Source: a bacterium (lineage in GTDB: Bacteria; Patescibacteriota; Minisyncoccia; Minisyncoccales; CG1-02-41-26). Taken from it: a DNA stretch of 49,592 bases. The position numbers were made by a program, and so were the translations under genes. This document shows positions 3,815 through 26,077 of this stretch, one piece after another (position 1 is the stretch's first letter; each line of letters starts with the position of its first letter). The notes beneath the pieces were generated by a model. The model was not told where the DNA came from, did not search any database, and worked only from the letters and a program-made list of their open reading frames with translations. The DNA lies in NCBI GenBank assembly GCA_021158045.1, contig JAGGVK010000018.1, positions 1 through 49,592 on the forward strand. The letters are read 5' to 3'.

Positions 3815-3836
3815 ATTATTTAGCGCACTGGAGAAC

Positions 3837-4258
3837 ATTATCAACGAGACCCGGACTCGTTGTTACTTGTTGTTATTCTGAGCCGTTAGGCGAAGAATCC
3901 CCCCCATCAAAATGCAAATCTCAAATCTCAAATCTCAAAATGACATCCCTTTTTTGTCATTGCGAGGAGTCCTGTGATAAGCACTTTCCTTTTTGTCATT
4001 GCGAGGAGGACCGCCGAAGACGGGACGACGCGGCAATCTCAGGATTCTTTGTCATTTGTTTTACTTGGAATGATTACCAACTGCCATTCTGAGCCGTTAG
4101 GCGAAGAACCCCAGTAAAATCTCAAATCTCAAATCTCAAAATCACATCTCAAAATTCAAAATTACAATTCAAAATTCAAAATTCAAAACCAGAAAATGCA
4201 AATCTCAAATCTCAAATCTCAAAATGTGTTATCAACGAGACCCGGACTCGTTGTCATT
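3837..4258. repeat. Mosaic dispersed-repeat cluster 1
   Basis: Contains (AAATCTC)n runs, GTCATTGCGAGGAG modules and TCTGAGCCGTTAGGCGAAGAA modules. ATCAACGAGACCCGGACTCGTTG hairpin modules sit at both ends. The same modules recur in four other clusters. Confidence 0.9.
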
Positions 4259-4322
4259 CAATCCAAAATTAGTAGCCGCTGGGTTGTTGGAGATTTTGAA
4301 TTTTTAGTTTATAATATATAGT

Positions 4323-8444: not shown

Positions 8445-9818
8445 ATGACCAACGAAGAACTCTGGCAAGCAGTGCTTGCTCAAATCCAATTTCACTTATC
8501 CAAGGCGAATTTTTCCACCTGGTTCCGAAATACAAAAATCGTTTCTAAAAAAAACAACGAGATTACTGTTTCTGTGCCCAATGCTTTCTCTAAAGAATGG
8601 TTAGAAAAAAAATACAACAATCTCATACTTAAAGTTTTAAGAACAATAGATAAAAAAATAAGAAGAATTAATTATATCGTTAAAACAAAAGAACCTGAAT
8701 TAAAGGTAAAAACAAAAACAAAACTATCAAAAGAAGAAGAAAAAATAAAAACAAGCCAATTAAAACTTGAGAATTTTAAAATTAACCAAAAAACAAACCT
8801 TAACCCAAAATATACTTTTGACAATTTTATTGTTGGCGGCTTTAATGAATTAGCAAGAGCAGCGGCTTGGGCTATTTCTGAAAACCCTGGAATGGTTTAC
8901 AACCCCTTATTCATTTATGGCGGCGTTGGATTAGGGAAAACCCATCTTTTAGAAGCTACAGGGAATAGAATTTTAAAAAGAAACCAAAAAGCAAATATAC
9001 AATATATTCCTTCAGACAGATTTATTTCAAGCATAGTGCAAAGCATACAAAATCACACTATTGAGGACTTCAAAGGAAAACTCAGAAAACTTGATGTTTT
9101 GATTGTTGATGATATTCAATTTTTTAGCGGCAAAGAAAAAACCCAGGAGGTGTTTTTCCATATATTTAATGAGCTTTATGAAAAAAATAAACAAATAATC
9201 CTCTCTTCCGACAAGCCTCCAAAAGCCATTCCTGCTTTAGAGGAAAGGTTAAGGTCGAGGTTTGAAGGAGGAATGATTGCTGACATAGGATTGCCGGATA
9301 TCGAAACACGTATTGCTATTTTAAAATCAAAATGTGGAGAAAATAATATAAACTTGCCCCAGGAAGTGCTGGAGTACATTGCCACAAACATCCAAAAGAA
9401 TATCAGGGAGTTAGAAGGCGCCTTAAACAGAATAATAACTTTCGAGAGAATAAATAATATAACTCCAGACCTAAAAACTACAAAGAAACTTCTCAGAAAT
9501 TTAATAGCCTCACCTTCGCGAATAACGAGCTGGAAAAAAATTTTACAAACAGTTTCTGATTTTTATAATTTGAAAAGCAATACTCTTTTAGAGAAAAGCC
9601 GCCGGAAAGAAATTGTTAAAGCCCGCCAGATAGCTATGTATTTAGCAAGAGAAGAATTAAAGGAATCTTATCCATCTATAGGTAGGAAATTTGCCCAAAA
9701 AGACCATACAACTGTTATGTACGCATGCAAAAAAATATCGCAGCAGTTAGATGTAGACGATAATTTGGTAACTGAATTAAATTTAATTAAACAAAGGATT
9801 TACAATATATTAATCTAA
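8445..9818 (+). CDS. dnaA: Chromosomal replication initiator DnaA
   Basis: MTNEELWQAVLAQIQ N-terminus, Walker A GGVGLGKTHL, and a C-terminal DNA-binding region (RQIAMYLAREE...KDHTTVMYA). The ORF also extends to a TTG at 8418. Confidence 0.95.
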   Translation: MTNEELWQAVLAQIQFHLSKANFSTWFRNTKIVSKKNNEITVSVPNAFSKEWLEKKYNNLILKVLRTIDKKIRRINYIVKTKEPELKVKTKTKLSKEEEKIKTSQLKLENFKINQKTNLNPKYTFDNFIVGGFNELARAAAWAISENPGMVYNPLFIYGGVGLGKTHLLEATGNRILKRNQKANIQYIPSDRFISSIVQSIQNHTIEDFKGKLRKLDVLIVDDIQFFSGKEKTQEVFFHIFNELYEKNKQIILSSDKPPKAIPALEERLRSRFEGGMIADIGLPDIETRIAILKSKCGENNINLPQEVLEYIATNIQKNIRELEGALNRIITFERINNITPDLKTTKKLLRNLIASPSRITSWKKILQTVSDFYNLKSNTLLEKSRRKEIVKARQIAMYLAREELKESYPSIGRKFAQKDHTTVMYACKKISQQLDVDDNLVTELNLIKQRIYNILI

Positions 9819-11271: not shown

Positions 11272-11568
11272 CTGTTATTCTGAGCCGTTAGGCGAAGAAC
11301 CCCCATGGCAAATCTCAAATCTCAAATCTCAAAATGACATCCATTTTTTGTCATTGCGAGGAGTCCCGCTGAAGGCGGGACGACGCGGCAATCTCATTAC
11401 TTCGTCATGGAATAACTACCAATTGTCATTCTGAGCCGTTAGGCGAAGAACCCCCATGGCAAATCTCAAATCTCAAATCTCAAATCTCAAAATCACAATT
11501 CAAAGTTCAAAATTTCTTTTAATTTTAGATTTTAGATTGTTATTTTTCATTTTTCGCTTTTCATTTTT
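11272..11568. repeat. Mosaic dispersed-repeat cluster 3
   Basis: Same modules as cluster 1, plus the AT-rich module AATTCAAAGTTCAAAATTTCTTTTAATTTTAGATTTTAGATTGTTATTTTTCATTTTTC. Confidence 0.9.
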
Positions 11569-11620
11569 AATTTAATTTAGCGCCTTACTTGCGCAATTAA
11601 TTGTAATATTTGTTTTAAAA

Positions 11621-14191: not shown

Positions 14192-14364
14192 GTTGCTTAG
14201 CTAAGCTAAGCAACAAGCTAAGCAACAATGACGAAAAATAACCTATGGCCAAAATTCAAATCTCAAATCTCAAATCTCAAAATCACAATTCAAAATTCAA
14301 AATTTCTTTTAATTTTAGATTTTAGATTGTTATTTTTCATTTTTCATTTTTCACTTTTCATTTG
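14192..14364. repeat. Mosaic dispersed-repeat cluster 4 (hairpin GTTGCTTAGC/GCTAAGCAAC + heptamer run + AT-rich module), left flank of the island
   Basis: Same heptamer and AT-rich composite, in the same orientation, as at 25047-25165 and 25437-25550. Confidence 0.85.
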
Positions 14365-14410
14365 ACTTAATTGCTTTTACTCCTGAATTCTAAAAGAGGG
14401 GATTTTCTCC

Positions 14411-15511: not shown

Positions 15512-15883
15512 TCAATCCTCGTCCCGGCGTTTAGCCGCAGGGTCGAGGTTTTCAAACTCTAGCTTTACCGCTCTTATCCTGTGGAACTTTTTGAAGCGAT
15601 AATATCTGCTAGCTGCTTCTACTTCTGATTTCTCTTCCGGTACAATTTCCATTTCTGCCCAGAGAGGATGAACTCCCATATCGCAAATCCGAGTAATAAT
15701 TGAGAGTGGAGCCACAATTACCATTTCATCGTATCCACCCTGCTTGAATATCTTTACTACTTCTTCTGCTGAAGCAAACGGATTCGGAACCTGTTCAATT
15801 TTAATCTCTCCGAAAATCCGCCTTAACTCCCTCTCTTGACTGGGAAGCCAAGGGTGCCTGCTCATCCATAAAATTTTTTTCAC
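15512..15883 (-). CDS. 123-aa protein of unknown family (last gene of the island array)
   Basis: GTG start with GGAGGG SD 7 nt upstream. No motif recognised. Confidence 0.65.
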   Translation of the reverse strand: MKKILWMSRHPWLPSQERELRRIFGEIKIEQVPNPFASAEEVVKIFKQGGYDEMVIVAPLSIITRICDMGVHPLWAEMEIVPEEKSEVEAASRYYRFKKFHRIRAVKLEFENLDPAAKRRDED

Positions 15884-16092: not shown

Positions 16093-19000
16093 TCAATCAT
16101 CACCTCCTTCTAACTTATTTTTAAGAGCTTGGAGTATTTCTTCGGTAACTTCGCCTTCTTTCTCAGAAGGTTCAGTTACTGGGTCACTGGAATCAGCTTT
16201 CTTTTTCGCTTCTTCCAGTTTCTGCTCCAATCCCCTTATTCGTTCCGCCTCCTCAGGAAATGGAGGCTCTAAATGCACTATCACCAATTTGAACCGAGAA
16301 CCACTTATTAACTCTCGACCCAAACTGCAATAGTACATCTTCCCCTCAACCGGCTGACTTCCCCAGCGGTCAACAATGTACTTCACGGTTAATTTACCGT
16401 CTTTAGTAATTGCCTCCCACTGGTCTTCGCCAGTTTTGGGATGTTTGCCCTTGGAGAATCGAAGCCGGATATAACCTTGCTGTTGAGCAATTTTTATGTC
16501 TTCCTCGTATTCTCTTTGGGCTTGCTCCAATTCCCTTTCTGTCCGTTTCAGCTTTACTGCTTCCGGGTTCAGAATCCGCTTGAAATCCTTGAATTCCAGG
16601 GAGTCAAATATCTCTCCTTCTGTCCAGCGACTATCGTCTAAATCGTAGTCAGTAAGTAAGTAGATCTCGCCTACCTCTCTCCGGCGAGAACCACAAGAAC
16701 AACGAAGTTCAGCTACCACTTTTCCGGTATCTGTAACAATTTGAGAAAGCACTGCTGCTTCAATCGGGTATCCTTCCTCATCATATTCAGGGAACTCAAT
16801 CCTTTCCAGCTCATGACTAGCTCTACATTCACCATCATCCATTTCTTTTCCGCAAAGAGGACAATGGGAATAGTGCTTAGCAATTGCCTGTTCAACTTTC
16901 CTTGTGCATTCCGCTCGTTTCTCTAGCAGTTTCTGCAACCCTTTCGTCTTCTCCGAACCCTCGTTAACCAGCTCTAAGGCTTTTTTAAAATTCTCCTTCC
17001 TTAGAGCTGCTTCGCTTTTCCGGATAAAGTTTTGGATATTCTCTTTCTCTTTATATTTAAGAAAGGTATTATCCTCAACTTCCTCCAGAAACTTCTGAAG
17101 GTTGGAGAGCTTTTTCTCCGCTTCCATTTTCAGTCTTTCCGGCTGGCGGATCAATTCTACCAAAACTGTCTCTTCTCCAACTTGAACTTTTAACTCTCTA
17201 ATTTTCTCCTCTTCTAGCAATTGATATTCATCAGCAGAGAAAGGATATAGTATCAGTCCTATCCCCGTAGCAACTTCCTTCTGGGTTTTCATTTGAGAAA
17301 TTTTTTCTAGTTTTTGGGGTGCCAGTTTTGATCCATAGAGAAATCCATCCTTTGTCACATAAAACCATTCCCAATCTGGTCTATCTTCTATTTTCCACCG
17401 TGCTTCTTCTGGCAGAGAAGCAATTTCAGGAAGAATATCTTTCCCCATTCTCCAACTATTTCTGCTCTGCCATTTCCCACTCAACAGTTCCTTCGCCTCA
17501 TTCCGTATCTGTTTCAGTTCTTCCGGGGTTAAGAGAGAAATTGCTTTTTCTCTTTTTTCCTGACTTAAGCATTTGTAGCAGAGTTTCCGTCCAGAAATTG
17601 GGGAAACAGTCGGGTAGGTTCCAGCTTTTCCACATCCTTCGCATTTCTCCTCCTGCCGGCAGAGATTACAGCGCTTATCCTTCCCCTTTGACTCATACCG
17701 CTGGCGTCCACATTTGCACAACGGAAACCATTCCTCAATTTGCGTCCTTACAACCTTGGGAAGTTTCTCAAGAGTTGTTTCTGTTTCCACCCATTTTTCG
17801 TTCCATCCGGATTTCAAAAGAGCTGAAATTCTGATAACCCATCCTGGATCCCAAACCGGGTCCAATCTGTGATTGTAGAACTCACTGCCATCGTATCGAT
17901 AACAATTCCATTCCAACGGATTCTCTTCCGCTACTATCTCTTTCGAAACCAATTTTTCCTTTCCTGTCCGACTCCACTCCAGACCATCTTTGTTATACTT
18001 TACTTTCTGTTTCTCTTCGCAAAGAAACTTCTTCTTGATGATCTGGACTTTCACTCCGGCTTCTGAAAGAACAACTTTGTATTCTTGTCGTTCCTCCGGA
18101 ACCTCTCGAGTCTCAAGTTTTACTTCTCTTGATCCGAGAGATTTTTCCGTACCATCATACTCAATGCGAACTGTACTAATTTCAACCGTATCCGTGTCCT
18201 CAGTCTCCGTTATCTGTTCTCTATATTTCGGTCCTGCTGGAATCGCACGCAGCCCCCTTCCCCGTTTAGCCAGAAATACCCGATAGGTTTTGCCTTTTTC
18301 AGGTTTCCAGCCATCTTGGGGAAAAACCGGCTTCCGTTCGTGCCAGGCAATAAGCCGCTCTTCCTTTTCAGTTGAACGACGCTCATCGCATTCAAAAGAA
18401 ACCTCATCAATTTCCATTAACTCGGCTTCCTCCGAACTCGGCTGGCCAAACCGGCCCTCTTTATCAACCGACTGGCAATGGAGAGTGTAAACTCTCATAC
18501 ACTCTTTTGAAAAAGCATCCATTGCCGTTTGAAAAGTTGCTTCGTCTTGATACTCAAATGGACGAAGCGACTTTCTAACTATAACTACCCCATGACGGAT
18601 TTCGTAATCATAGCCATACTGCCGGTCAATTTCTGCCTCTGGGAGAACCGAGGTCAACTCTTGCGCCAAGAAAGCCCGGATTCTATCCCCCCCATTGATG
18701 TGACCAGATTTAAGCTGGTCTTCACAATGAAGGAGAGTTAATCGACGGACTTCCTTTTCCACATCTGCCCAGGCCTGCTTCCAGTTTTCTTCAGAAGTAA
18801 ATTCCGTCTCAGCCAGGTGCCGCGTCAATTCCAATTCCTGTCCTTTGTGAGTCCGGTATTCAAAACCGCTCTGCCACTTGACCGTTGGGTCAATTACTTT
18901 GCCGAGCTTAACCTTTAGAGTTGGGCAAAGCGATCTGCCCCCATAATGTGTCAGTTCGAATATCACATCTGTAGTCGCCTCAAGAATATCCTTAATCTCA

Positions 19001-19314
19001 GCCATTCCATTTACAACCCGAACACCTTTTCCAGTTGTTACCCGCAGAACTGCTGCCAGAGCATGGGCCTTAAAGAACTCCACAGCAGATTTTACATTTT
19101 CCGCTTTCAGAGTTTTCCTTCCCTTTCTTTCTCCACCCACGATAAAGAAATACATTGGGTGGATGATTTGACAGTCCGATTCCAGTTCACCAATATCCTC
19201 CACCTCATTCTCCAGCCTGAAACCGTAACCGGTCAGGCCTTTGAAAAAGGTGGCTGCTGGCAATGACCTATAAAGGTCAATTGCCTCTTTCAATCCCTTA
19301 CGCACTTTTTCCAT
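16093..19314 (-). CDS. 1073-aa protein of unknown family with two zinc-ribbon clusters and coiled-coil segments
   Basis: AGGAGG SD 6 nt upstream of the ATG. Cys clusters are CKC..CNLC..CEGC..CYKC (aa 533-582) and HCPLC..C..H..CSC (aa 817-874). Acidic C-terminal tail. Confidence 0.85.
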   Translation of the reverse strand: MEKVRKGLKEAIDLYRSLPAATFFKGLTGYGFRLENEVEDIGELESDCQIIHPMYFFIVGGERKGRKTLKAENVKSAVEFFKAHALAAVLRVTTGKGVRVVNGMAEIKDILEATTDVIFELTHYGGRSLCPTLKVKLGKVIDPTVKWQSGFEYRTHKGQELELTRHLAETEFTSEENWKQAWADVEKEVRRLTLLHCEDQLKSGHINGGDRIRAFLAQELTSVLPEAEIDRQYGYDYEIRHGVVIVRKSLRPFEYQDEATFQTAMDAFSKECMRVYTLHCQSVDKEGRFGQPSSEEAELMEIDEVSFECDERRSTEKEERLIAWHERKPVFPQDGWKPEKGKTYRVFLAKRGRGLRAIPAGPKYREQITETEDTDTVEISTVRIEYDGTEKSLGSREVKLETREVPEERQEYKVVLSEAGVKVQIIKKKFLCEEKQKVKYNKDGLEWSRTGKEKLVSKEIVAEENPLEWNCYRYDGSEFYNHRLDPVWDPGWVIRISALLKSGWNEKWVETETTLEKLPKVVRTQIEEWFPLCKCGRQRYESKGKDKRCNLCRQEEKCEGCGKAGTYPTVSPISGRKLCYKCLSQEKREKAISLLTPEELKQIRNEAKELLSGKWQSRNSWRMGKDILPEIASLPEEARWKIEDRPDWEWFYVTKDGFLYGSKLAPQKLEKISQMKTQKEVATGIGLILYPFSADEYQLLEEEKIRELKVQVGEETVLVELIRQPERLKMEAEKKLSNLQKFLEEVEDNTFLKYKEKENIQNFIRKSEAALRKENFKKALELVNEGSEKTKGLQKLLEKRAECTRKVEQAIAKHYSHCPLCGKEMDDGECRASHELERIEFPEYDEEGYPIEAAVLSQIVTDTGKVVAELRCSCGSRRREVGEIYLLTDYDLDDSRWTEGEIFDSLEFKDFKRILNPEAVKLKRTERELEQAQREYEEDIKIAQQQGYIRLRFSKGKHPKTGEDQWEAITKDGKLTVKYIVDRWGSQPVEGKMYYCSLGRELISGSRFKLVIVHLEPPFPEEAERIRGLEQKLEEAKKKADSSDPVTEPSEKEGEVTEEILQALKNKLEGGDD

Positions 19315-19577: not shown

Positions 19578-21182
19578 TCAGACTTTACCAAAGACCTCAC
19601 CGGCTTCCTCCGAGTTCAGCTCCGAGACCAGAACAATCTCATCGCTGAACTCTTTTGCTGCCGCACGACTCGAGCTACCAACGTCAACAAGAACTGTCAC
19701 TACTTGAACTTCTTCTTTCCTCTTGAATTCCTGAAACTGCTCTCGAAACGAATCCGACACCGCGCATTCCCCATCGGTCACAAAACAGATATCAGCCCGC
19801 GGTAACTTTCCGGACTCCACAATTTCTTGTGCTTTCCCGAGTGGTTTTTCAAAATCCGTACCGCCACCCAGAAAGAATTCTGCCATCTGAATCAGTTTCT
19901 TGTAATTCGCTTCTCCTGTGCGAATCCAAAACTCCTTTATCGGGTCATCTCTGCTTCCGAACATCAGGTAGACGAAGTCGCGTCGTTTTGACTTGGAAAC
20001 TTGCCACAATCCAAGTGCCACCGCTTTCGCCCAAATCTCTTTCGCGCCTTCCATTGAGCCAGAATTATCAATTCCTACGATAATCGGTCCCTCACCCAGT
20101 TTCTCCTTCCGCTCCACTTCGTATTGCAACAACTGCTGATTAGCGAATTTCCGCAAGAATTCCATTTTCAGTACAGGATGAGCTAAGAATTGCATTTCTG
20201 AAGGAATAACCTTATCCAAGTCATTTCCCCGACGAACATTGACTACCATTCCAGCTGGAGCTTGGATTTTCTCTTTCTGTCGCGCAATTGCGAGCCGTCT
20301 GAACTTCCCTAAGAGTTTGGAAATCTGTTTTAGTTTTGAAGACGATTCCAGTTTCTTTTTCAATTCCAGTTTCTGTTCATAATCCAGTTTCTGTATTTCA
20401 CCCGGTTCTACTCCCCAGGATTCCAACATTTCACTCGTTTCCTTCGCATTCTCCGCTGCTTCTTTTGCTGCTTTCCGCATTCCTCTCCGGAACTGTTCCG
20501 AATTCTGCTGTAAGTCCTGTTCCAGTCCATCTGCCATCTGTTCCAACTGCTGTTTTGCCTCATCAAGCGTCATTTGGGCTTGAGAGGTCTGTTGTCCGAG
20601 AGAATTCGCCTGCTGTTGCATCTGTTGTGCCTGTTGCTGCAGCTGTTGAGCTTGAGTTCCAGTTGCAGTCTGCGCCTGTTGTTGTAAGTCATCTGCCTGT
20701 CCCTGCGCTGCTTCTGCTTGCTGTTGCAAATCCTGTGTCTGCTGCTGCAACTGCTGGCTCTTCTGCTCTTGTTGCTGTAGCTGCTGAATTTTCTGTTTTG
20801 TCTCTTCTGGAATCAGTTCCAACGCTACTGGTCCGAGGGTAAGAGTTGCCATCGCAGAACCAAATTCGTCCAGTTCAGTATACTGCCGTAACTCTGGATA
20901 CTGCTTCGTGGCCAATAACTTTTCCATCAGCATCCGATTAACCCGTCGCGAAGGAACCACTGCCCCTGCTTTCCGCAGTTGGGGATCCGCTTTGTAGAGC
21001 GCTGAGTAGATATCTTGTATCAAATCCGAAAATACCGGTAGAGTTTGAATTCCATTTCGTTCCATTTCCACCAACTTTTCCGACTTCTGTTTCAACTGGG
21101 AAAATGCTGCCCGATCATATCTGTCACAGCGGATTGCCCAAGGGAATTGCTGGATTTCTTCCTCTCTTCTTTTCATTTTCAT
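19578..21182 (-). CDS. ViaA-like von Willebrand factor A (vWA) protein with a Gln-rich central insert
   Basis: C-terminal vWA with an intact MIDAS (IVGIDNSGSM ... GGGTDF ... FVTDGE). The linker QQLLQYEV preceding the vWA resembles ViaA KQLLTYRL. The GGAGG SD overlaps the end of the upstream AAA+ gene. Confidence 0.85.
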   Translation of the reverse strand: MKMKRREEEIQQFPWAIRCDRYDRAAFSQLKQKSEKLVEMERNGIQTLPVFSDLIQDIYSALYKADPQLRKAGAVVPSRRVNRMLMEKLLATKQYPELRQYTELDEFGSAMATLTLGPVALELIPEETKQKIQQLQQQEQKSQQLQQQTQDLQQQAEAAQGQADDLQQQAQTATGTQAQQLQQQAQQMQQQANSLGQQTSQAQMTLDEAKQQLEQMADGLEQDLQQNSEQFRRGMRKAAKEAAENAKETSEMLESWGVEPGEIQKLDYEQKLELKKKLESSSKLKQISKLLGKFRRLAIARQKEKIQAPAGMVVNVRRGNDLDKVIPSEMQFLAHPVLKMEFLRKFANQQLLQYEVERKEKLGEGPIIVGIDNSGSMEGAKEIWAKAVALGLWQVSKSKRRDFVYLMFGSRDDPIKEFWIRTGEANYKKLIQMAEFFLGGGTDFEKPLGKAQEIVESGKLPRADICFVTDGECAVSDSFREQFQEFKRKEEVQVVTVLVDVGSSSRAAAKEFSDEIVLVSELNSEEAGEVFGKV

Positions 21183-21194
21183 CTTCCGCCTCCT

Positions 21195-22364
21195 TTAGAG
21201 TTCAATCCCAAGGCATTCTTTAACCACATCCCGGAGGTACCGTTCCACCGCATCCTTCACATCCTCAATTTTCCCAGTAGGTGCACCAGCCCGCTTCGCC
21301 TCATCCAGAAGATTTACCACATTCGTTCGGATGTTTTTGAGTTTTGCATTTGCCTCAGTTCCTAATTTGGATTTTCTGCTCTCATCCTGTTCACCGAGTG
21401 CCTCATCACGGATTTCCGTTGCTGTATCCAGAAGTTCTTGAGCCCGAAGTGCTAAAGGATTTGCCACCTCCAATACGACATCCCTGACTTTCCGAATATC
21501 CTTTTGCTCATCCCACAAGCAGTGCTGAAGCATCAGCAGGTCTTCCTCTTCCACTTTCTGCCTGTCTTCCAGTAACGCGTGCGCTTGCAATACTAGGTTC
21601 AGTCGGACATCCCTACGGCCATAGACAACAATCCCTTGGTCATAGAGTTTTTCAATAATTTCCTCTACTTTTTCGTCTATGGTTTCCGGGACTTCAACTT
21701 CCACCACCTGCTGTTGCAACTGTTGGAGTTCTGTAAGAGAAATTTTGGGAGCATCGAACTTTCCTTTCGGATCGCCTTTCCTCCGCAGATACGATAACTG
21801 CCTCATCCGAATCCTTTCGGACTTTTCCTTTATCCGTCCTACTACGAATCGGAACATAAACCGGTCGTAGAACGCCTCCAAATCTTCTTCTGGAGCATTG
21901 TTCGTTGCCCCGAAAAGAGAAATTAGAGGGCAGTCCAGTTGGCGTCCTTTTAGTGTCCATTTCCGTTCGTTAATCAACAGCAATAAAGCGTTCAAGGTAG
22001 CCGGATTGCAACGGAAGATTTCCTCCAATACGGCAATGTGTGCCTGCTGGAGCATTCCTTCGCCGCGTGGAGTAATCTCAATCCTTTTTCTGCCGTCACC
22101 GAGATCCTGTTCAACATAGTCCCTATCCGAAACGAACAAGTCATCTGGAACAGTGTCCTGTGCGAGTAGGTGTTTGAAGTAGGTCACTCCATCCAAGGTC
22201 CGGCACAGCAGCTCTATCAACATACTTTTCGCTTCCCCCGGAGGGCCAAATAATATGCCGTGCTGCTTTGACAGCAAAGCACATATTAGCCCCCGGATGA
22301 CTTCCTTTCTTCCTACCAAGAGACGGTTCAGTTCCGTCTCTATTCTCTTCATTTTTTCAATCAT
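21195..22364 (-). CDS. RavA/MoxR-family AAA+ ATPase
   Basis: Walker A GPPGEAKS, Walker B IAVLEEIF, sensor GATN, DRFMFR. The LLMLQHCLWDEQKD segment parallels RavA LILLKDCLWYDAQS. I prefer the ATG at 22364 (AAGGAGG 5 nt upstream) over the track start at 22391. Confidence 0.9.
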   Translation of the reverse strand: MIEKMKRIETELNRLLVGRKEVIRGLICALLSKQHGILFGPPGEAKSMLIELLCRTLDGVTYFKHLLAQDTVPDDLFVSDRDYVEQDLGDGRKRIEITPRGEGMLQQAHIAVLEEIFRCNPATLNALLLLINERKWTLKGRQLDCPLISLFGATNNAPEEDLEAFYDRFMFRFVVGRIKEKSERIRMRQLSYLRRKGDPKGKFDAPKISLTELQQLQQQVVEVEVPETIDEKVEEIIEKLYDQGIVVYGRRDVRLNLVLQAHALLEDRQKVEEEDLLMLQHCLWDEQKDIRKVRDVVLEVANPLALRAQELLDTATEIRDEALGEQDESRKSKLGTEANAKLKNIRTNVVNLLDEAKRAGAPTGKIEDVKDAVERYLRDVVKECLGIEL

Positions 22365-22500
22365 TCTTTCCTCCTTTCCGGCATCTTTCATCTTTGCCGG
22401 TTCTCATTTTTTTAAGGTTCCTCTCTGATAACCCAGAGAGAATACTGAGGGCAAAATTTTCGTCCCCAATATTCTCCCAAGGTTTCTTATAAAAAAGAGA

Positions 22501-22537
22501 AGAGAGTAGGAGTAGAGTTGCATTGCCCCTACCCTCT
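22501..22537 (-). terminator. Bidirectional hairpin terminator after csx3
   Basis: AGAGAGTAGG / CCTACCCTCT stem with one mismatch. A6 lies upstream and T6 downstream on the + strand, which gives a U6 tail on the minus strand too. Confidence 0.55.
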
Positions 22538-22547
22538 TTTTTCGGTA

Positions 22548-22865
22548 CTAATCGATTAAGTCACCGGGGCGGTACTTATCGCCGTGAGAAACGGCGACAA
22601 CATACCTTCCCAGTTTGGGGTCAAACACCGCCACCACCTCGTAGAGGTGGACCACCGCGTGCCCAATCGCGATGGCAACTGGGAGACTCGCCGGCCCGTT
22701 TATCTTAATCAGGGAGCCGCCGGCAAGCTCACCTGATTTGACCATCTCGTCCAGACGCGCAACCGCGTCACGGACGATTTGGTCATTTTGAGCCGGGTCG
22801 CCAAACCCGACCCTCAACACATCGCCCTCTTCGAGGGTAATGTGATAAGTTTTTTCTTTAGCCAT
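22548..22865 (-). CDS. csx3: Csx3-family protein (CRISPR-associated cA4 ring nuclease, Crn3 type), orphan
   Basis: LIKINGPASLPVAIAIGHAVVHLYEVVAVFDPKLGRYVVAVSHGDKYRPGDLID matches my recollection of the A. fulgidus Csx3 core (VVISGRGPIWLHCFLAHKYHHTPFVAVYDPRLGAVVVQSHSELREGDVID). AAGGAGGG SD before the ATG at 22865. Confidence 0.7.
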   Translation of the reverse strand: MAKEKTYHITLEEGDVLRVGFGDPAQNDQIVRDAVARLDEMVKSGELAGGSLIKINGPASLPVAIAIGHAVVHLYEVVAVFDPKLGRYVVAVSHGDKYRPGDLID

Positions 22866-22992
22866 TTTTACCCTCCTTATGTTCACCCAGAATAAAATGG
22901 CAAATTCTGGACTAAGGGATTGTTAGTTTAAGCCTCTTTTTCAGCCCCCTATGGTTTATTTTTACATCGTCTCCAATCGACGATGGGCAAAA

Positions 22993-23586
22993 TTACTTTT
23001 CCTCGGCGGTTGCCATCCGCACGAGGAATTGGGCAAGTGCGACCACACAGGGTCGCTGGCTCACATCCTCACCTCTTTCAAGGTAATGGATGGAGCCTCT
23101 AAAGATACCGTCCTTGCCCACACCATGAACGGTATCTTCCTGGCCATGATAATCGCTGAAAATTTCAGCGATTATCTTTAACCCGAGTTCTGAACAAAAC
23201 GCTCTCCACTCGGGTACCTTATCCATGTCACCAGCCAGGATGATGGCATGGGTGGCGGTTTTGCAAATTTTTTTATTTTCCACTGATGGAATACCGCCAA
23301 TATCCACCAGAGTGAGCGGGAGTTGACAGTTGACGACTGAGTCTGCCACCCGCTTGACAAACTCAGGAGAAAACCCACTTAAGGAGGCCTTATATTCCTC
23401 CTTTAAGCGGCGGGCTTCCTCGGGCGACCGGTTTGCAGTCTCTTGAAACCAGGCGCCCTCGCCGTCCGGGCACGCCGTAATTACGTAGGGATACGGCGCC
23501 CCCGGAATTCTTTTGATTGCCTGCTTCAATCCCTCTCGCAGGCAACTCTTCCCGCTACGTGGCGGGCCACAGAGCACAATTTTCAT
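22993..23586 (-). CDS. 197-aa P-loop NTPase, operonic with csx3
   Basis: Walker A GPPRSGKS at the N-terminus. Walker B/DxxG LTLVDIGG. GGAGGTG SD 8 nt upstream. Confidence 0.75.
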   Translation of the reverse strand: MKIVLCGPPRSGKSCLREGLKQAIKRIPGAPYPYVITACPDGEGAWFQETANRSPEEARRLKEEYKASLSGFSPEFVKRVADSVVNCQLPLTLVDIGGIPSVENKKICKTATHAIILAGDMDKVPEWRAFCSELGLKIIAEIFSDYHGQEDTVHGVGKDGIFRGSIHYLERGEDVSQRPCVVALAQFLVRMATAEEK

Positions 23587-24136
23587 TGTGCTCTCACCTC
23601 CTTTGCCCGCCTGCGCGGGCTTTTTTTATTCTCCTTTTTTTTAGCAAGGAGTGCACCGTGCACTTTCAACCAATCGCTTACTTTTGGACAGCAAGTGTTG
23701 GCTGGCGCGTCCGCCAATGAAAGTGCACGGGCGCACTCATTACTAAGGTTGAGAGAGGTGGAGGCAACCGAAACTGACCTTCCATCTCCTCGATGTGATA
23801 GGTTAACCTCAGTTGTATCTCACTTTTTACCCCTGATTGTCACAAAACCTGTATTTTAAAGAGCTAATTCTCTCCTCTTGGGAGAAGGATAGAGAAGAAC
23901 ATTTTTATCTGTTTGATGTAGATGATTGTTTGGCTGGCTAACAAACAGTCAGGATAGCCTAATTCGAGCCTTATTCTCCCTCCTCTATCCTTCTCCCCTG
24001 AACCAATCTTTGCTCTAGTTCAGCAGGAGGAAGAGGTTATTTATATTGTTAAAAGGGCTAAATAATAGGCGACTCTCAGAGAGAGTCGCCTATTGCAGCA
24101 TTTCTACAATTTCGCTCTCTCCTCGAAACTTGATAA
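23587..24136 (-). promoter_or_regulatory. ~550-nt structured leader or ncRNA region between the tandem promoters and the P-loop gene
   Basis: No credible ORF. It holds a 13-bp hairpin (24064-24094), a CTGAAC..GTTCAG hairpin (23998-24023) and a 15-bp long-range stem (23880-23894 / 23983-23997). It also holds two AGTGCAC-type palindromes (23650-23664, 23722-23737) and the GC hairpin GCCCGC-ctgc-GCGGGC (23605-23620). Confidence 0.5.
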
Positions 24137-24142
24137 TATTTA

Positions 24143-24302
24143 ATTGTAGTATATTTTCGGGATTTTGTCAAGGTATTCTCTATATGTCTGTCCTTTTTCT
24201 AAGTACCTCTATTATAATACATTCAAATTTCCTTGTCAATAGTTTATTTTTATTTCTCTTCTAAAGCACTCTGATTATAGCATATTTAATTTTGTTTGTC
24301 AA
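24143..24302 (-). promoter_or_regulatory. Three tandem near-consensus sigma70 promoters reading leftward
   Basis: On the minus strand: TTGACA(24302-24297)-17nt-TATAAT(24279-24274), TTGACA(24239-24234)-17nt-TATAAT(24216-24211) and TTGACA(24171-24166)-17nt-TACAAT(24148-24143). Confidence 0.55.
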
Positions 24303-24540: not shown

Positions 24541-24570
24541 AAAAACCGCTTGTTGAGCGCAAACAAGCGG
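24541..24570 (-). terminator. Intrinsic terminator of the small membrane-protein gene
   Basis: On the minus strand, CCGCTTGTT-tgcgctc-AACAAGCGG followed by TTTTT, 15 nt after the stop. Confidence 0.75.
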
Positions 24571-24584
24571 TAATGAATTTTCTG

Positions 24585-24776
24585 CTACTTTTCTGCTGCT
24601 TCTATAGAAGCAGCAGAAAAAATTACAAATAAAATTACTATAGCAGCCCCCATACCGAGAACTGTCTTCCAGGCCATCGGCATTGTGCTGTTTCTTAACA
24701 GCACAAGGCCACAACCTGTACTGTATCCTATCCCCAAGATTACTACCCTGAGGATAATTCTTTTTAAAAAGCTCAT
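24585..24776 (-). CDS. 63-aa two-TM small membrane protein
   Basis: ATG at 24776 is preceded by AAGGAGGTGGG. Sequence MSFLKRIILRVVILGIGYSTGCGLVLL...TVLGMGAAIVILFVIFSAASI. It has its own promoter and terminator. The track start at 24785 is a GTG inside the SD. Confidence 0.55.
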   Translation of the reverse strand: MSFLKRIILRVVILGIGYSTGCGLVLLRNSTMPMAWKTVLGMGAAIVILFVIFSAASIEAAEK

Positions 24777-24800
24777 TTTTCCCACCTCCTTTCGTTCTTC

Positions 24801-24830
24801 ATTATAGCATGTTTATAATATTCTTGTCAA
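24801..24830 (-). promoter_or_regulatory. Consensus sigma70 promoter for the small membrane-protein gene
   Basis: On the minus strand, TTGACA(24830-24825)-18nt-TATAAT(24806-24801). The sequence is paralogous to the three tandem promoters. Confidence 0.6.
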
Positions 24831-24875
24831 GAGGCTGGTTCTTTCATTTTAAGACATAGAGTATATAACCAATGA

Positions 24876-25550
24876 CCAAAATCTCAAATCTCAAATCTCA
24901 AATCTCAAAATGACATCTCAAAATGCAAAATTAGAAAATTCAAAATGCAAATTTAGAAAAGCAAAATCTCAAATCTCAAAATGACCCTGAAGCAGAACAA
25001 GTTCGCTACAGGGCAGGCAGTATTGCTTACCCTGGGTAAGCAATAGGAATCTCAAACCTCAAATCTCAAATCTCAAAATGACAATTCAAAGTTCAAAATT
25101 TCTTTTAATTTTAGATTTTAGATTGTTATTTTTCATTTTTCACTTTTCATTTTTAATTTTTCATTGCCTTGCGAGGAGTCCTGCTGAAGGCGGGACGACG
25201 CGGCAATCTCAGGATTGCAGTAATAGGAGGAAGGGATTGCTTCGTCAGTCGCTTCGCTCCTTCCTCGCAATGACAGGGGAATGGAATCGTTTCACTCAGG
25301 ATGACAGTGAGGATAAAATAAAAAAGACAAGGACTTTTTAAATGACGAAACCCGAATGACGAATGACGAAAAAATGTTATCAACGAGACCCGGACTCGTT
25401 GTCGTTCTGAGCCGTTAGGCGAAGAATCCCAGCCAAAATGCAAATCTCAAATCTCAAATCTCAAAATGACAATTCAAAGTTCAAAATTTCTTTTAATTTT
25501 AGATTTTAGATTGTTATTTTTCATTTTTCACTTTTCATTTTTCATTTTTT
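24876..25550. repeat. Mosaic dispersed-repeat cluster 5 (largest), right flank of the island
   Basis: All module types are present. The heptamer and AT-rich composite occurs twice (25047-25165, 25437-25550). The GAAGCGACTGACGAAGCAATC module is in inverted orientation at 25235-25275. Confidence 0.9.
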
Positions 25551-25552
25551 TG

Positions 25553-26077
25553 CTACCTTACGAAAAGTCCTGCTCTCTTAGAGGGCTTTATTGAGTTTGA
25601 GCAATATATAGCAATTGCTAAAGCGTCGGCAGCATCGTCAGGTTTAGGAATTTTATCTAAATCCAACAAATCTTTTATCATCTTTTGTATTTGTTGCTTT
25701 TCTGCTCTCCCGTAACCGCAAATGCCCATTTTAACTTCAAGAGGCGTGAATTGTTGGATTTTAATTTTTTTTCTTGCTGCTGCCAGAAGAATTACACCTC
25801 GGGCTTCGCTTACTGGCATAGCTGTTTTTAAGTTTTTGAAGAAATAAAGCTTTTCAATTGCCATTACTTTTGGTTTGTACTTTCTTAATAGCTTTAAAAT
25901 TTCAAAGTGCAGTTTCTTTAACCTTTCTTCTGGTTTTAAAGAAGGATTAGTTTTAATAACGCCGTATCCTAAACACTCCAGTGAATTTTTTTCGCTTTTT
26001 GTTTTTCTTTTTTTAATCTTTCTTATTACGCCAAATCCAGTAGTGGCTGTGCCTGGGTCAATACCTAAAATGGTCAT
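25553..26077 (-). CDS. ruvC: Holliday junction resolvase RuvC
   Basis: MTILGIDPGTATTGFGVI N-terminus and the C-terminal DAADALAIAI motif. Confidence 0.9.
   Translation of the reverse strand: MTILGIDPGTATTGFGVIRKIKKRKTKSEKNSLECLGYGVIKTNPSLKPEERLKKLHFEILKLLRKYKPKVMAIEKLYFFKNLKTAMPVSEARGVILLAAARKKIKIQQFTPLEVKMGICGYGRAEKQQIQKMIKDLLDLDKIPKPDDAADALAIAIYCSNSIKPSKRAGLFVR

Follow-up and report, generated by a model that had tools for sequence, protein, structure and literature searches.

Contig JAGGVK010000018.1 of assembly GCA_021158045.1 (Patescibacteriota; Minisyncoccia; Minisyncoccales; CG1-02-41-26) was analysed over positions 1–49,592, and this whole 49,592-nt stretch is referred to as the window, in whose positions all coordinates below are given. 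The window carries a GC-rich island of ~8.5 kb (~15.5–24.05 kb) that holds the genes for a P-loop NTPase and a standalone protein of the Csx3 family, followed by those for a MoxR-class ATPase, a von Willebrand factor A (vWA) protein, and a 1073-aa protein that we call Big, together with a 123-aa open reading frame (ORF). Our preferred reading, to which we give slightly less than an even chance, is that the island encodes a horizontally acquired, CRISPR-independent conflict system of the MoxR-vWA ternary type, equipped with a P-loop/Csx3 module that senses and clears a ligand. Its five principal genes are the following.

22993–23586, minus strand: P-loop NTPase, 197 aa, the 'AAA' partner of Csx3 (PADLOC matches, AlphaFold2 (AF2) model)
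22548–22865, minus strand: standalone Csx3/Crn3-family protein, 105 aa, catalytic type (profile matches and invariant residues)
21195–22391, minus strand: MoxR-class AAA+ ATPase, 398 aa, bpMoxR/RavA-like (P-loop GPPGEAKS)
19578–21182, minus strand: vWA protein, 534 aa (helical N-terminus, Gln-rich coiled coil, C-terminal vWA domain)
16093–19314, minus strand: Big, 1073 aa, the conserved third component (fold unrecognised)

The triad of MoxR, vWA, and Big genes was found in 11 lineages, and in seven of them P-loop and Csx3 sequences lie directly upstream on the same strand. The split pair takes this place in four lineages (the window, L007, L018, and L103) and a divergent AAA-Csx3 fusion of the C3a67 type in three (L092/L113, L102, and L120), the triad-linked fusions reaching PADLOC E-values of 2e-47 and 3e-59. 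At all loci examined, the Big relative comes after the MoxR gene and then the vWA gene, and Big has diverged to 35–45% identity across the triad lineages. The L120 fusion has absorbed a 257-aa protein (C6); in L102, C6 has a gene of its own, placed between the fusion and moxR. Because a Csx3 relative is so rare (~0.1% of species genomes), chance adjacency is not credible, and the two modules either work together or co-mobilise as one island. Four triad lineages lack Csx3, and the slot is then occupied by other nucleotide-handling proteins, HD_4 phosphohydrolases in L104/L115 and a kinase-like P-loop protein of the AAA_33 family in L095. HD_4 genes (PF13328) stand directly upstream of moxR in L102 (5851–6447), L104 (1807–2340), and L115 (3033–3566), so that L102 has HD_4 as well as its AAA-Csx3 fusion. 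Two small ORFs upstream of moxR in L101 (194 and 99 aa) were considered as Csx3/P-loop candidates and rejected, as they gave no such signal. The triad is accompanied by variable accessory genes (a PIN toxin-antitoxin pair, HD_4, and Csx3), and a serine recombinase lies at the edge of L102.

The composition of the island differs from that of its surroundings. Its GC content is 0.44–0.50 against 0.33–0.38 in the flanks, and the GC content at third codon positions (GC3) of its genes is 0.42–0.63 against 0.27–0.33 in the flanking ruvC, yebC, ruvB, and pilB. The surroundings are chromosomal, with dnaA, ruvABC, yidC, mur, and penicillin-binding protein genes as well as a type II restriction-modification system. 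An assembly chimera as the source of the GC jump was ruled out because identical junctions occur in independent assemblies. The best reading is that the island was horizontally acquired and sits in the chromosome of a low-GC bacterium of the Patescibacteria, or candidate phyla radiation (CPR), type. Neither the ORFs of the island nor the Pfam families listed for the remainder of the window include a phage, plasmid, or integrase gene.

The P-loop protein and Csx3 have ~900–1100 metagenome relatives each, the best 120 at 65–85% identity, and in a collection that represents each of 185,579 species by one genome, 185 stretches code for relatives. Neighbourhood analysis of the P-loop homologues, which a first-pass annotation of the window had proposed, separated the listed loci into two groups: metagenome-assembled genomes of Patescibacteria/CPR bacteria, with the P-loop gene and then csx3, both standalone, and filamentous cyanobacteria, with a standalone Csx3 followed by a standalone P-loop protein or a Csx3-AAA fusion. 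We found no paper linking Csx3 with CPR bacteria. In most CPR loci, the GC content of the pair exceeds that of the flanks by 10–20 points, and the P-loop/Csx3 identity between loci (66–79%) is higher than the RuvB identity in the same genomes (55–58%) and does not track it. The foreign GC content and these identities therefore mark the pair as a sporadic, horizontally moving accessory module and not a housekeeping one. Vertical inheritance with synteny near ruvB was also considered, as four loci share ruvB and pilB neighbours, and is disfavoured by GC3 and by identities above those of RuvB. In eight CPR loci, a TrmB-family regulator of ~255–270 aa, absent from the window, adjoins the pair (L001 6293–7111, L015 4366–5124, L017 8936–9709, L018 407–1219, L023 1455–2222, L038 5479–6243, L073 6967–7830, and L092 10959–11720) and may be its dedicated regulator.

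The first-pass annotation had recognised the 105-aa protein as an orphan Csx3, with the important His and Asp, beside a P-loop NTPase. Both ORFs lie on the minus strand where it had placed them, and the Csx3 motif that it quoted is present (INGPASLPVAIAIGHAVVHLYEVVAVFDPKLGRYVVAVSHGDKYRPGDLID). The csx3 gene starts with ATG, preceded by AAGGAGGG, and this 105-aa start is right and a 112-aa GTG alternative unlikely because every homologue begins MA.... The protein scored 24.5 bits against Pfam PF09620 (gathering score 21), in its C-terminal half only (profile positions 45–77 of 78), and matched the PADLOC profiles 'Csx3 (CARF)' (2e-14, profile positions 8–81 of 84) and 'Csx3-AAA' (5e-27). A profile of the diverse family matched the Csx3 of Archaeoglobus fulgidus (AfCsx3; 6yud) at E = 5e-10 over residues 41–97; a profile of close homologues alone did so weakly (E ~0.009). 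The family identity thus stood, with the caveats given below: by its sequence matches the protein belongs to the wider Csx3 family, not to the Crn3 equivalog. H69, H73, D82, K84, and H94 are invariant across 30 homologues and align with AfCsx3 as H69=H57, H73=H60/H61, D82=D69, K84=R71, and H94=H80, with G57=G45; not only the His and Asp noted at first pass but also the basic residue after the Asp are therefore conserved. In AfCsx3, H60, D69, R71, and H80 are required for the cleavage of cyclic tetra-adenylate (cA4), H57 is described as absolutely conserved and as probably coordinating Mn2+, and the active site forms between stacked dimers that polymerise on cA4 (Athukoralage et al., PMC7371418). 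The C-terminal helix that follows GDVID in AfCsx3 is missing here, the 105-aa protein ending at GDLID.

The 197-aa partner carries Walker A (GPPRSGKS) and Walker B (LVDIGG) motifs, and GPPxSGKS and LVDIGG are invariant among its homologues. It matched PADLOC profiles of the Csx3-AAA/AAA-Csx3 families (PDLC01045, PDLC01515, and PDLC01059 for the locus): Csx3-AAA at 1.6e-59 over profile positions 109–285, PDLC01515 at 1.4e-56, and AAA-Csx3 C3a67 at 8e-35. It shares 38% identity with the C-terminal AAA part of Synechocystis Slr7080, whose gene adjoins cmr genes on pSYSA. The neighbour singled out at first pass is thus a true Csx3 partner, fused to it elsewhere and split from it here, but not a novel one: because it is the 'AAA' domain of Csx3-AAA, the locus represents an already described family of type III accessories in split form. 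Csx3-AAA and AAA-Csx3 are clusters 35 and 67 of Shah et al. 2019 (PMC6546367), and the literature refers to the domain as an AAA+ ATPase of unknown function (PMC8284326, PMC9676260, bioRxiv 2024.09.24.614671). The 197-aa protein matched no AAA family of Pfam. Its AF2 model (predicted local distance difference test (pLDDT) score 85.6) found its best Foldseek matches in SRP54/FtsY, GPN-loop GTPases, ParA/MinD/Soj, Get3, and Cfd1 (template-modelling (TM) scores 0.44–0.56), and no AAA+ proteins were among the matches listed. The model thus predicts that the 'AAA' partner is mislabelled and is a SIMIBI-like or kinase-type P-loop protein instead of an AAA+ ATPase; the invariant DxxG-type Walker B fits the SIMIBI class. 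NTPases of this class usually switch by nucleotide-dependent dimerisation. Fusions of P-loop and Csx3 in both domain orders imply a physical interaction between the two.

The catalytic residues follow the architecture. In alignments, the His/Asp/Lys/His set is kept in standalone Csx3 from CPR bacteria, cyanobacteria, and most IMG/VR contigs. In the Csx3-AAA fusions of cyanobacteria, Slr7080 among them, DPK is kept and the second His and H94 are lost, with both helix histidines gone in some copies. The triad-linked C3a67-type fusions have no equivalents of H57, D69, R71, and H80, and a ~20-aa insertion replaces the DPR motif; the SG[KR]GP ligand loop is kept in two of these three (L092 and L102). 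From these residue patterns, binding or sensing would fall to the Csx3 domain attached to the P-loop, and cleavage to the free Csx3. Since the triad-linked fusions have lost the catalytic residues, the conserved role would be ligand sensing, beyond that of a mere off-switch. The first-pass idea of an off-switch tied to the MoxR, vWA, and 1073-aa genes therefore survives in its linkage (seven of 11 lineages) but not as an off-switch alone. In cyanobacteria, a standalone and catalytically intact Csx3 lies directly upstream of a Csx3-AAA fusion (L036 9995–11271; L122, pSYSA, 8653–9585), and the sequences suggest a nuclease-plus-sensor pair.

In the triad, the MoxR protein matched Pfam PF20030 (bpMoxR, 2.1e-33), AAA_5, and AAA_lid_8, as well as the NCBIfam profile RavA (5.6e-36). 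The vWA domain forms the C-terminal end of the 534-aa protein, which has no beta-propeller; a metal ion-dependent adhesion site (MIDAS) motif, DNSGS, can be read from the translation, and matches to ViaA (4.4e-18) and VWA_CoxE (0.0065) were obtained, with PF13519 present in its homologues. Big consists of an N-terminal alpha+beta domain of ~400 aa, a Cys cluster (C533–C582), and a helical C-terminal part, and its AF2 model has a pLDDT of 71.8 (~85 for residues 1–410). A word-seeded search recovered 11 relatives of Big and an exhaustive HMMER search 147 clusters, of which just ~20 have the N-terminal domain, and the C-terminal module recurs across a wider uncharacterised family. A known domain, an N-terminal DEAH/HA2 helicase, was found in 4 of 59 Big relatives scanned, a faint hint, from domain architecture, that the C-terminal module may have a nucleic-acid-related role. 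Four or five long relatives (P0287, P0319, P0345, P0346, and P0388; 1327–1630 aa) match the C-terminal module of Big only, and the four helicase carriers, unnamed in the output, are taken to be these.

MoxR and vWA proteins are the core of the 'ternary' conflict systems described by Kaur, Burroughs, Iyer, and Aravind (2020, eLife; PMC7159879); in these systems the chaperone pair acts on a third component, remodelling or releasing it, and Csx3 is listed among the effector domains. On our preferred reading, the island would combine two modules, the SIMIBI-like P-loop NTPase with the standalone Csx3, and MoxR with the vWA/MIDAS adaptor and Big, and the two would work together. Csx3 dimers would stack, as those of AfCsx3 do, and sandwich between them an oligoadenylate-like ligand (cA4 or a relative), which this protein, with its intact His/Asp/Lys set, may also cleave in a metal-dependent manner. 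The ligand-driven stacking would be coupled to the nucleotide-dependent dimerisation and hydrolysis of the P-loop partner, and ligand destruction by the catalytic-type Csx3 would reset the switch, making the pair a self-resetting sensor. For Big, the presumptive sensor or effector, remodelling or release by the MoxR-vWA pair would follow. A role in defence or conflict is suggested by context, namely the foreign composition, the variable accessory genes, and the serine recombinase of L102.

The signals around the pair were also predicted, as follows.

24143–24302, minus strand: three tandem sigma-70-like promoters (consensus matches 12/12, 12/12, and 11/12)
23587–24142, minus strand: long structured 5' leader, ~550 nt (hairpins 24064–24094, 23880–23997, and 23605–23620)
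22490–22536, minus strand: terminator-like hairpin directly after csx3, 13-bp stem and U-tract (-19.5 kcal/mol, z = -3.7)

The P-loop gene and csx3 are two ORFs on the same strand with a 127-nt gap in which no terminator was found, so that their co-transcription, assumed at first pass, is plausible from the sequence. The promoters, predicted by consensus only, lie in AT-rich host-like DNA and are directed at the P-loop gene, two of the three inside a 50-nt tandem duplication (D8); together with the GC3 contrast, they bear out the earlier description of foreign DNA behind strong promoter-like sites. The leader has a minimum free energy of -227.8 kcal/mol against -150.7 ± 6.7 for shuffles (z = -11.5). 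Its sequence is unconserved, blastn against all loci giving just one 32-nt promoter-like match (in L031), and Rfam returned nothing credible for it at E ≤ 1. An inverted-repeat scan showed that other CPR loci likewise carry long hairpins upstream of the P-loop gene. The hairpin after csx3 was not listed by the consensus terminator scan, which we attribute to its 13-nt loop.

Several observations weigh against the preferred reading. The 105-aa protein falls below the NCBIfam equivalog TIGR02579 (25.4 vs 55.4 bits), so that of the profile searches suggested at first pass the Pfam one gave a match, to the C-terminal half, and this one stayed under its cut-off. Its second His, H73, aligns with H61 of AfCsx3, or with H60 if the alignment is gap-free, a one-residue offset. 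Residues that contact cA4 in AfCsx3 are altered here (R46 to P58, S44 to N56, and R71 to K84), so that cA4 is a putative substrate; of the residues linked to cA4 cleavage at first pass, the His and Asp are kept. A cyclic-oligonucleotide synthase was not recognisable in the island or the window. Big matched nothing in Pfam, NCBIfam, PADLOC, or a profile search of PDB sequences, and none of the third components of the Kaur systems (VMAP, iSTAND, FtsH, or TPR/beta-propeller) occurs here, Big being different. A Pfam search of all 11 Big homologues returned nothing, leaving no recognisable effector or sensor domain in Big, and Foldseek against PDB and BFVD gave best E-values of 0.04 and 0.0065 with TM below 0.1, nothing meaningful; faint matches to LEF-3, HIN, and a type III secretion system chaperone were rejected as noise. 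Finally, the terminator-like hairpin parts csx3 from moxR, and most CPR copies of the pair are without the triad.

These last two points lead to the first rival, that two independent cassettes share a defence island or insertion hot spot: an autonomous mobile P-loop/Csx3 module, for example a ring nuclease or an RNA 3'-end nuclease with its own regulator, beside an unrelated MoxR-vWA-Big set. We regard this as a real possibility, though on the doubtful side. The main point for it is the hairpin, by which the pair may be a separate or attenuated transcription unit. As most CPR pairs have no triad, the pair can work by itself or at any rate be maintained, and eight such loci have a TrmB-family regulator beside it. 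The pair also has a higher GC3 (0.57–0.63) than MoxR, vWA, and Big (0.42–0.50), and four triad lineages have no Csx3. Two cassettes fit less well with the upstream pair in seven of the 11 triad lineages, constant in order and orientation and including the divergent fused AAA-Csx3 type, or with the uptake of C6 by the L120 fusion; a gene present in ~0.1% of species genomes is, moreover, very unlikely to lie there by chance.

A bolder version of the preferred reading, which we consider unlikely, is a self-contained immunity system based on oligonucleotide signalling, in which an unrecognised synthase, possibly within Big or another uncharacterised island gene, would make a cA4-like signal upon infection, the P-loop/Csx3 pair would sense and clear it, and MoxR-vWA would gate the effector. 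If true, CPR bacteria, a group that for the most part lacks CRISPR-Cas, would have a new class of signalling defence, and the 'AAA' domain of Csx3-AAA would be explained as a ligand-coupled switch of the SIMIBI type.

We think it quite unlikely that the pair is an ordinary type III CRISPR accessory whose CRISPR-Cas locus lies beyond the window or elsewhere in the genome. Its database name, 'CRISPR-associated Csx3', points that way, as do the cyanobacterial relatives (58–68% identical), which have arrays within 10 kb in ~17 of ~58 loci and cmr genes nearby on pSYSA. The window itself has no CRISPR array by Tandem Repeats Finder and a k-mer spacing scan, the sole array-like match being a heptamer repeat (24892–25066) that is not CRISPR, and there is no strong match to cas10, CARF, SAVED, or CD-NTase among the families listed for the 39 other window ORFs, as the first-pass annotation had held. 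Arrays within 10 kb were found in 0 of ~22 CPR loci (20 kb each), and it is MoxR, vWA, and Big, instead of cas genes, that accompany the pair as conserved partners in this lineage. To our knowledge, CPR bacteria rarely carry CRISPR-Cas.

The first-pass annotation had raised the possibility of an anti-defence role, a ring nuclease of a mobile element that destroys host cA4 (anti-type III) or the signals of cyclic oligonucleotide-based antiphage signalling systems (CBASS), comparable to AcrIII-1. The foreign-composition DNA behind strong promoter-like sites and the intact catalytic residues agree with this. The island is, however, chromosomal (near dnaA, ruvABC, and mur), with no mobile hallmark gene among its ORFs or the families listed for the remainder of the window and an arrangement fixed in several assemblies, and the genes to which the pair is linked are host genes of chaperone type. 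Neither the P-loop protein nor Csx3 matched any of 50,697 cultured-phage records, and plasmid matches were cyanobacterial without exception. We consider this role very unlikely here. Large IMG/VR viral contigs do carry standalone Csx3 relatives (45–56% identity), which by sequence are candidate viral ring nucleases; the P-loop partner is present in none of the seven IMG/VR loci with a Csx3 relative, and two of these relatives lie 5–9 kb from DarB-like anti-restriction genes (L105, 888–4403 and 9878–10312; L108, 847–4476 and 9992–10672). Least probable of all is a housekeeping-like RNA processing role, in which Csx3 would be a Mn-dependent deadenylating exoribonuclease acting with the NTPase on cellular RNA: AfCsx3 was originally so described (Yan et al. 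2015, as cited in PMC7371418), and the pair is very strongly conserved and set among housekeeping genes, but its sporadic occurrence (185 stretches), foreign GC3, signs of horizontal transfer, and linkage to genes of conflict-system type speak against it.

Other features of the window include an ORF at the end of the island.

15512–15883, minus strand: ORF, 123 aa (own ribosome-binding site, GC3 0.42, no family match)

A homologue of this ORF lies directly upstream of moxR in L018 (cluster C7). Composite AT-rich intergenic repeats occur at 3830–4260, 11273–11579, 14223–14369, and 24842–25553, with modules consisting of runs of the heptamers CAAATCT and TTTTCAT and GC-rich hairpin boxes. A 120-nt repeat unit is present in four copies of 92–93% identity, and two direct copies (14250–14369 and 25046–25165) bracket the GC-rich island. 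The arms of a 46-nt inverted repeat (8149–8194/25235–25280, 98% complementary) are 17 kb apart, one of them in the repeat-rich intergenic region beside ruvC. The type II restriction-modification pair, a RE_BsaWI-like endonuclease and an N6/N4 DNA methylase, lies in the window outside the island. Between the repeat region and the island promoters, a 66-aa hydrophobic ORF (24585–24785, minus strand) has its own perfect consensus promoter (24801–24830) and a strong bidirectional terminator hairpin (24545–24571). In the Rfam scan, tRNAs alone exceeded the gathering score.

Both Csx3-AAA accessory proteins and MoxR-vWA ternary systems are already known, and the locus is a variant of both. It shares both domains with the Csx3-AAA and AAA-Csx3 (C3a67) families, which are single polypeptides with known type III cas neighbours, whereas here the domains are split, P-loop then Csx3, as in the CPR pair loci of that order, with no cas genes or arrays beside them; the window Csx3 also retains histidines lost from the fused cyanobacterial and C3a67-type domains. 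Compared with the Crn3/Csx3 of A. fulgidus (AF1864; PDB 3WZI and 6YUD), the protein is of similar size (~105 aa) and keeps the equivalents of D69, H80, G45, and H57, but has HxxxH in place of HxxH, aligns by sequence in its C-terminal half alone, and has no CRISPR context. The Kaur systems likewise have a bpMoxR-type MoxR (PF20030), a vWA/MIDAS protein, a large conserved third protein, and variable accessory modules; Csx3 occurs there as a C-terminal fusion to vWA, whereas here it is a separate gene with a P-loop partner, and their hosts are multicellular lineages, Bacteroidetes, Planctomycetes, Verrucomicrobia, and Proteobacteria (PMC7159879) in contrast to a CPR-like bacterium. The gene order of ATPase and then vWA is shared with RavA-ViaA of Escherichia coli, but the window scores are far below the equivalog cut-offs, and here there are an extra 1073-aa partner, a Csx3 module, and a foreign-island composition.

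AcrIII-1 is a metal-independent protein borne by phages or plasmids. What the locus has in common with AcrIII-1 (DUF1874) is the proposal that a small protein encoded on foreign DNA degrades cA4, and nothing else; the family and fold are unrelated, and the window gene lies in the chromosome, linked to chaperone genes of host type. Until now, the one role understood for Csx3/Crn3 has been to switch off type III CRISPR signalling, whereas here the module lives without CRISPR in CPR-like bacteria and is repeatedly wired to a MoxR-vWA pair and a large protein of unrecognised fold. The loss of the catalytic residues in fused Csx3 and their retention in standalone Csx3 suggest that sensing and cleavage are divided between the two, which can be tested. 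If the linkage is functional, the locus would represent a new branch of the MoxR-vWA ternary conflict systems with a possible CRISPR-independent use of an oligoadenylate-type ligand; if it is not, the locus would still be a clean case of a cas accessory module exapted and spread horizontally.

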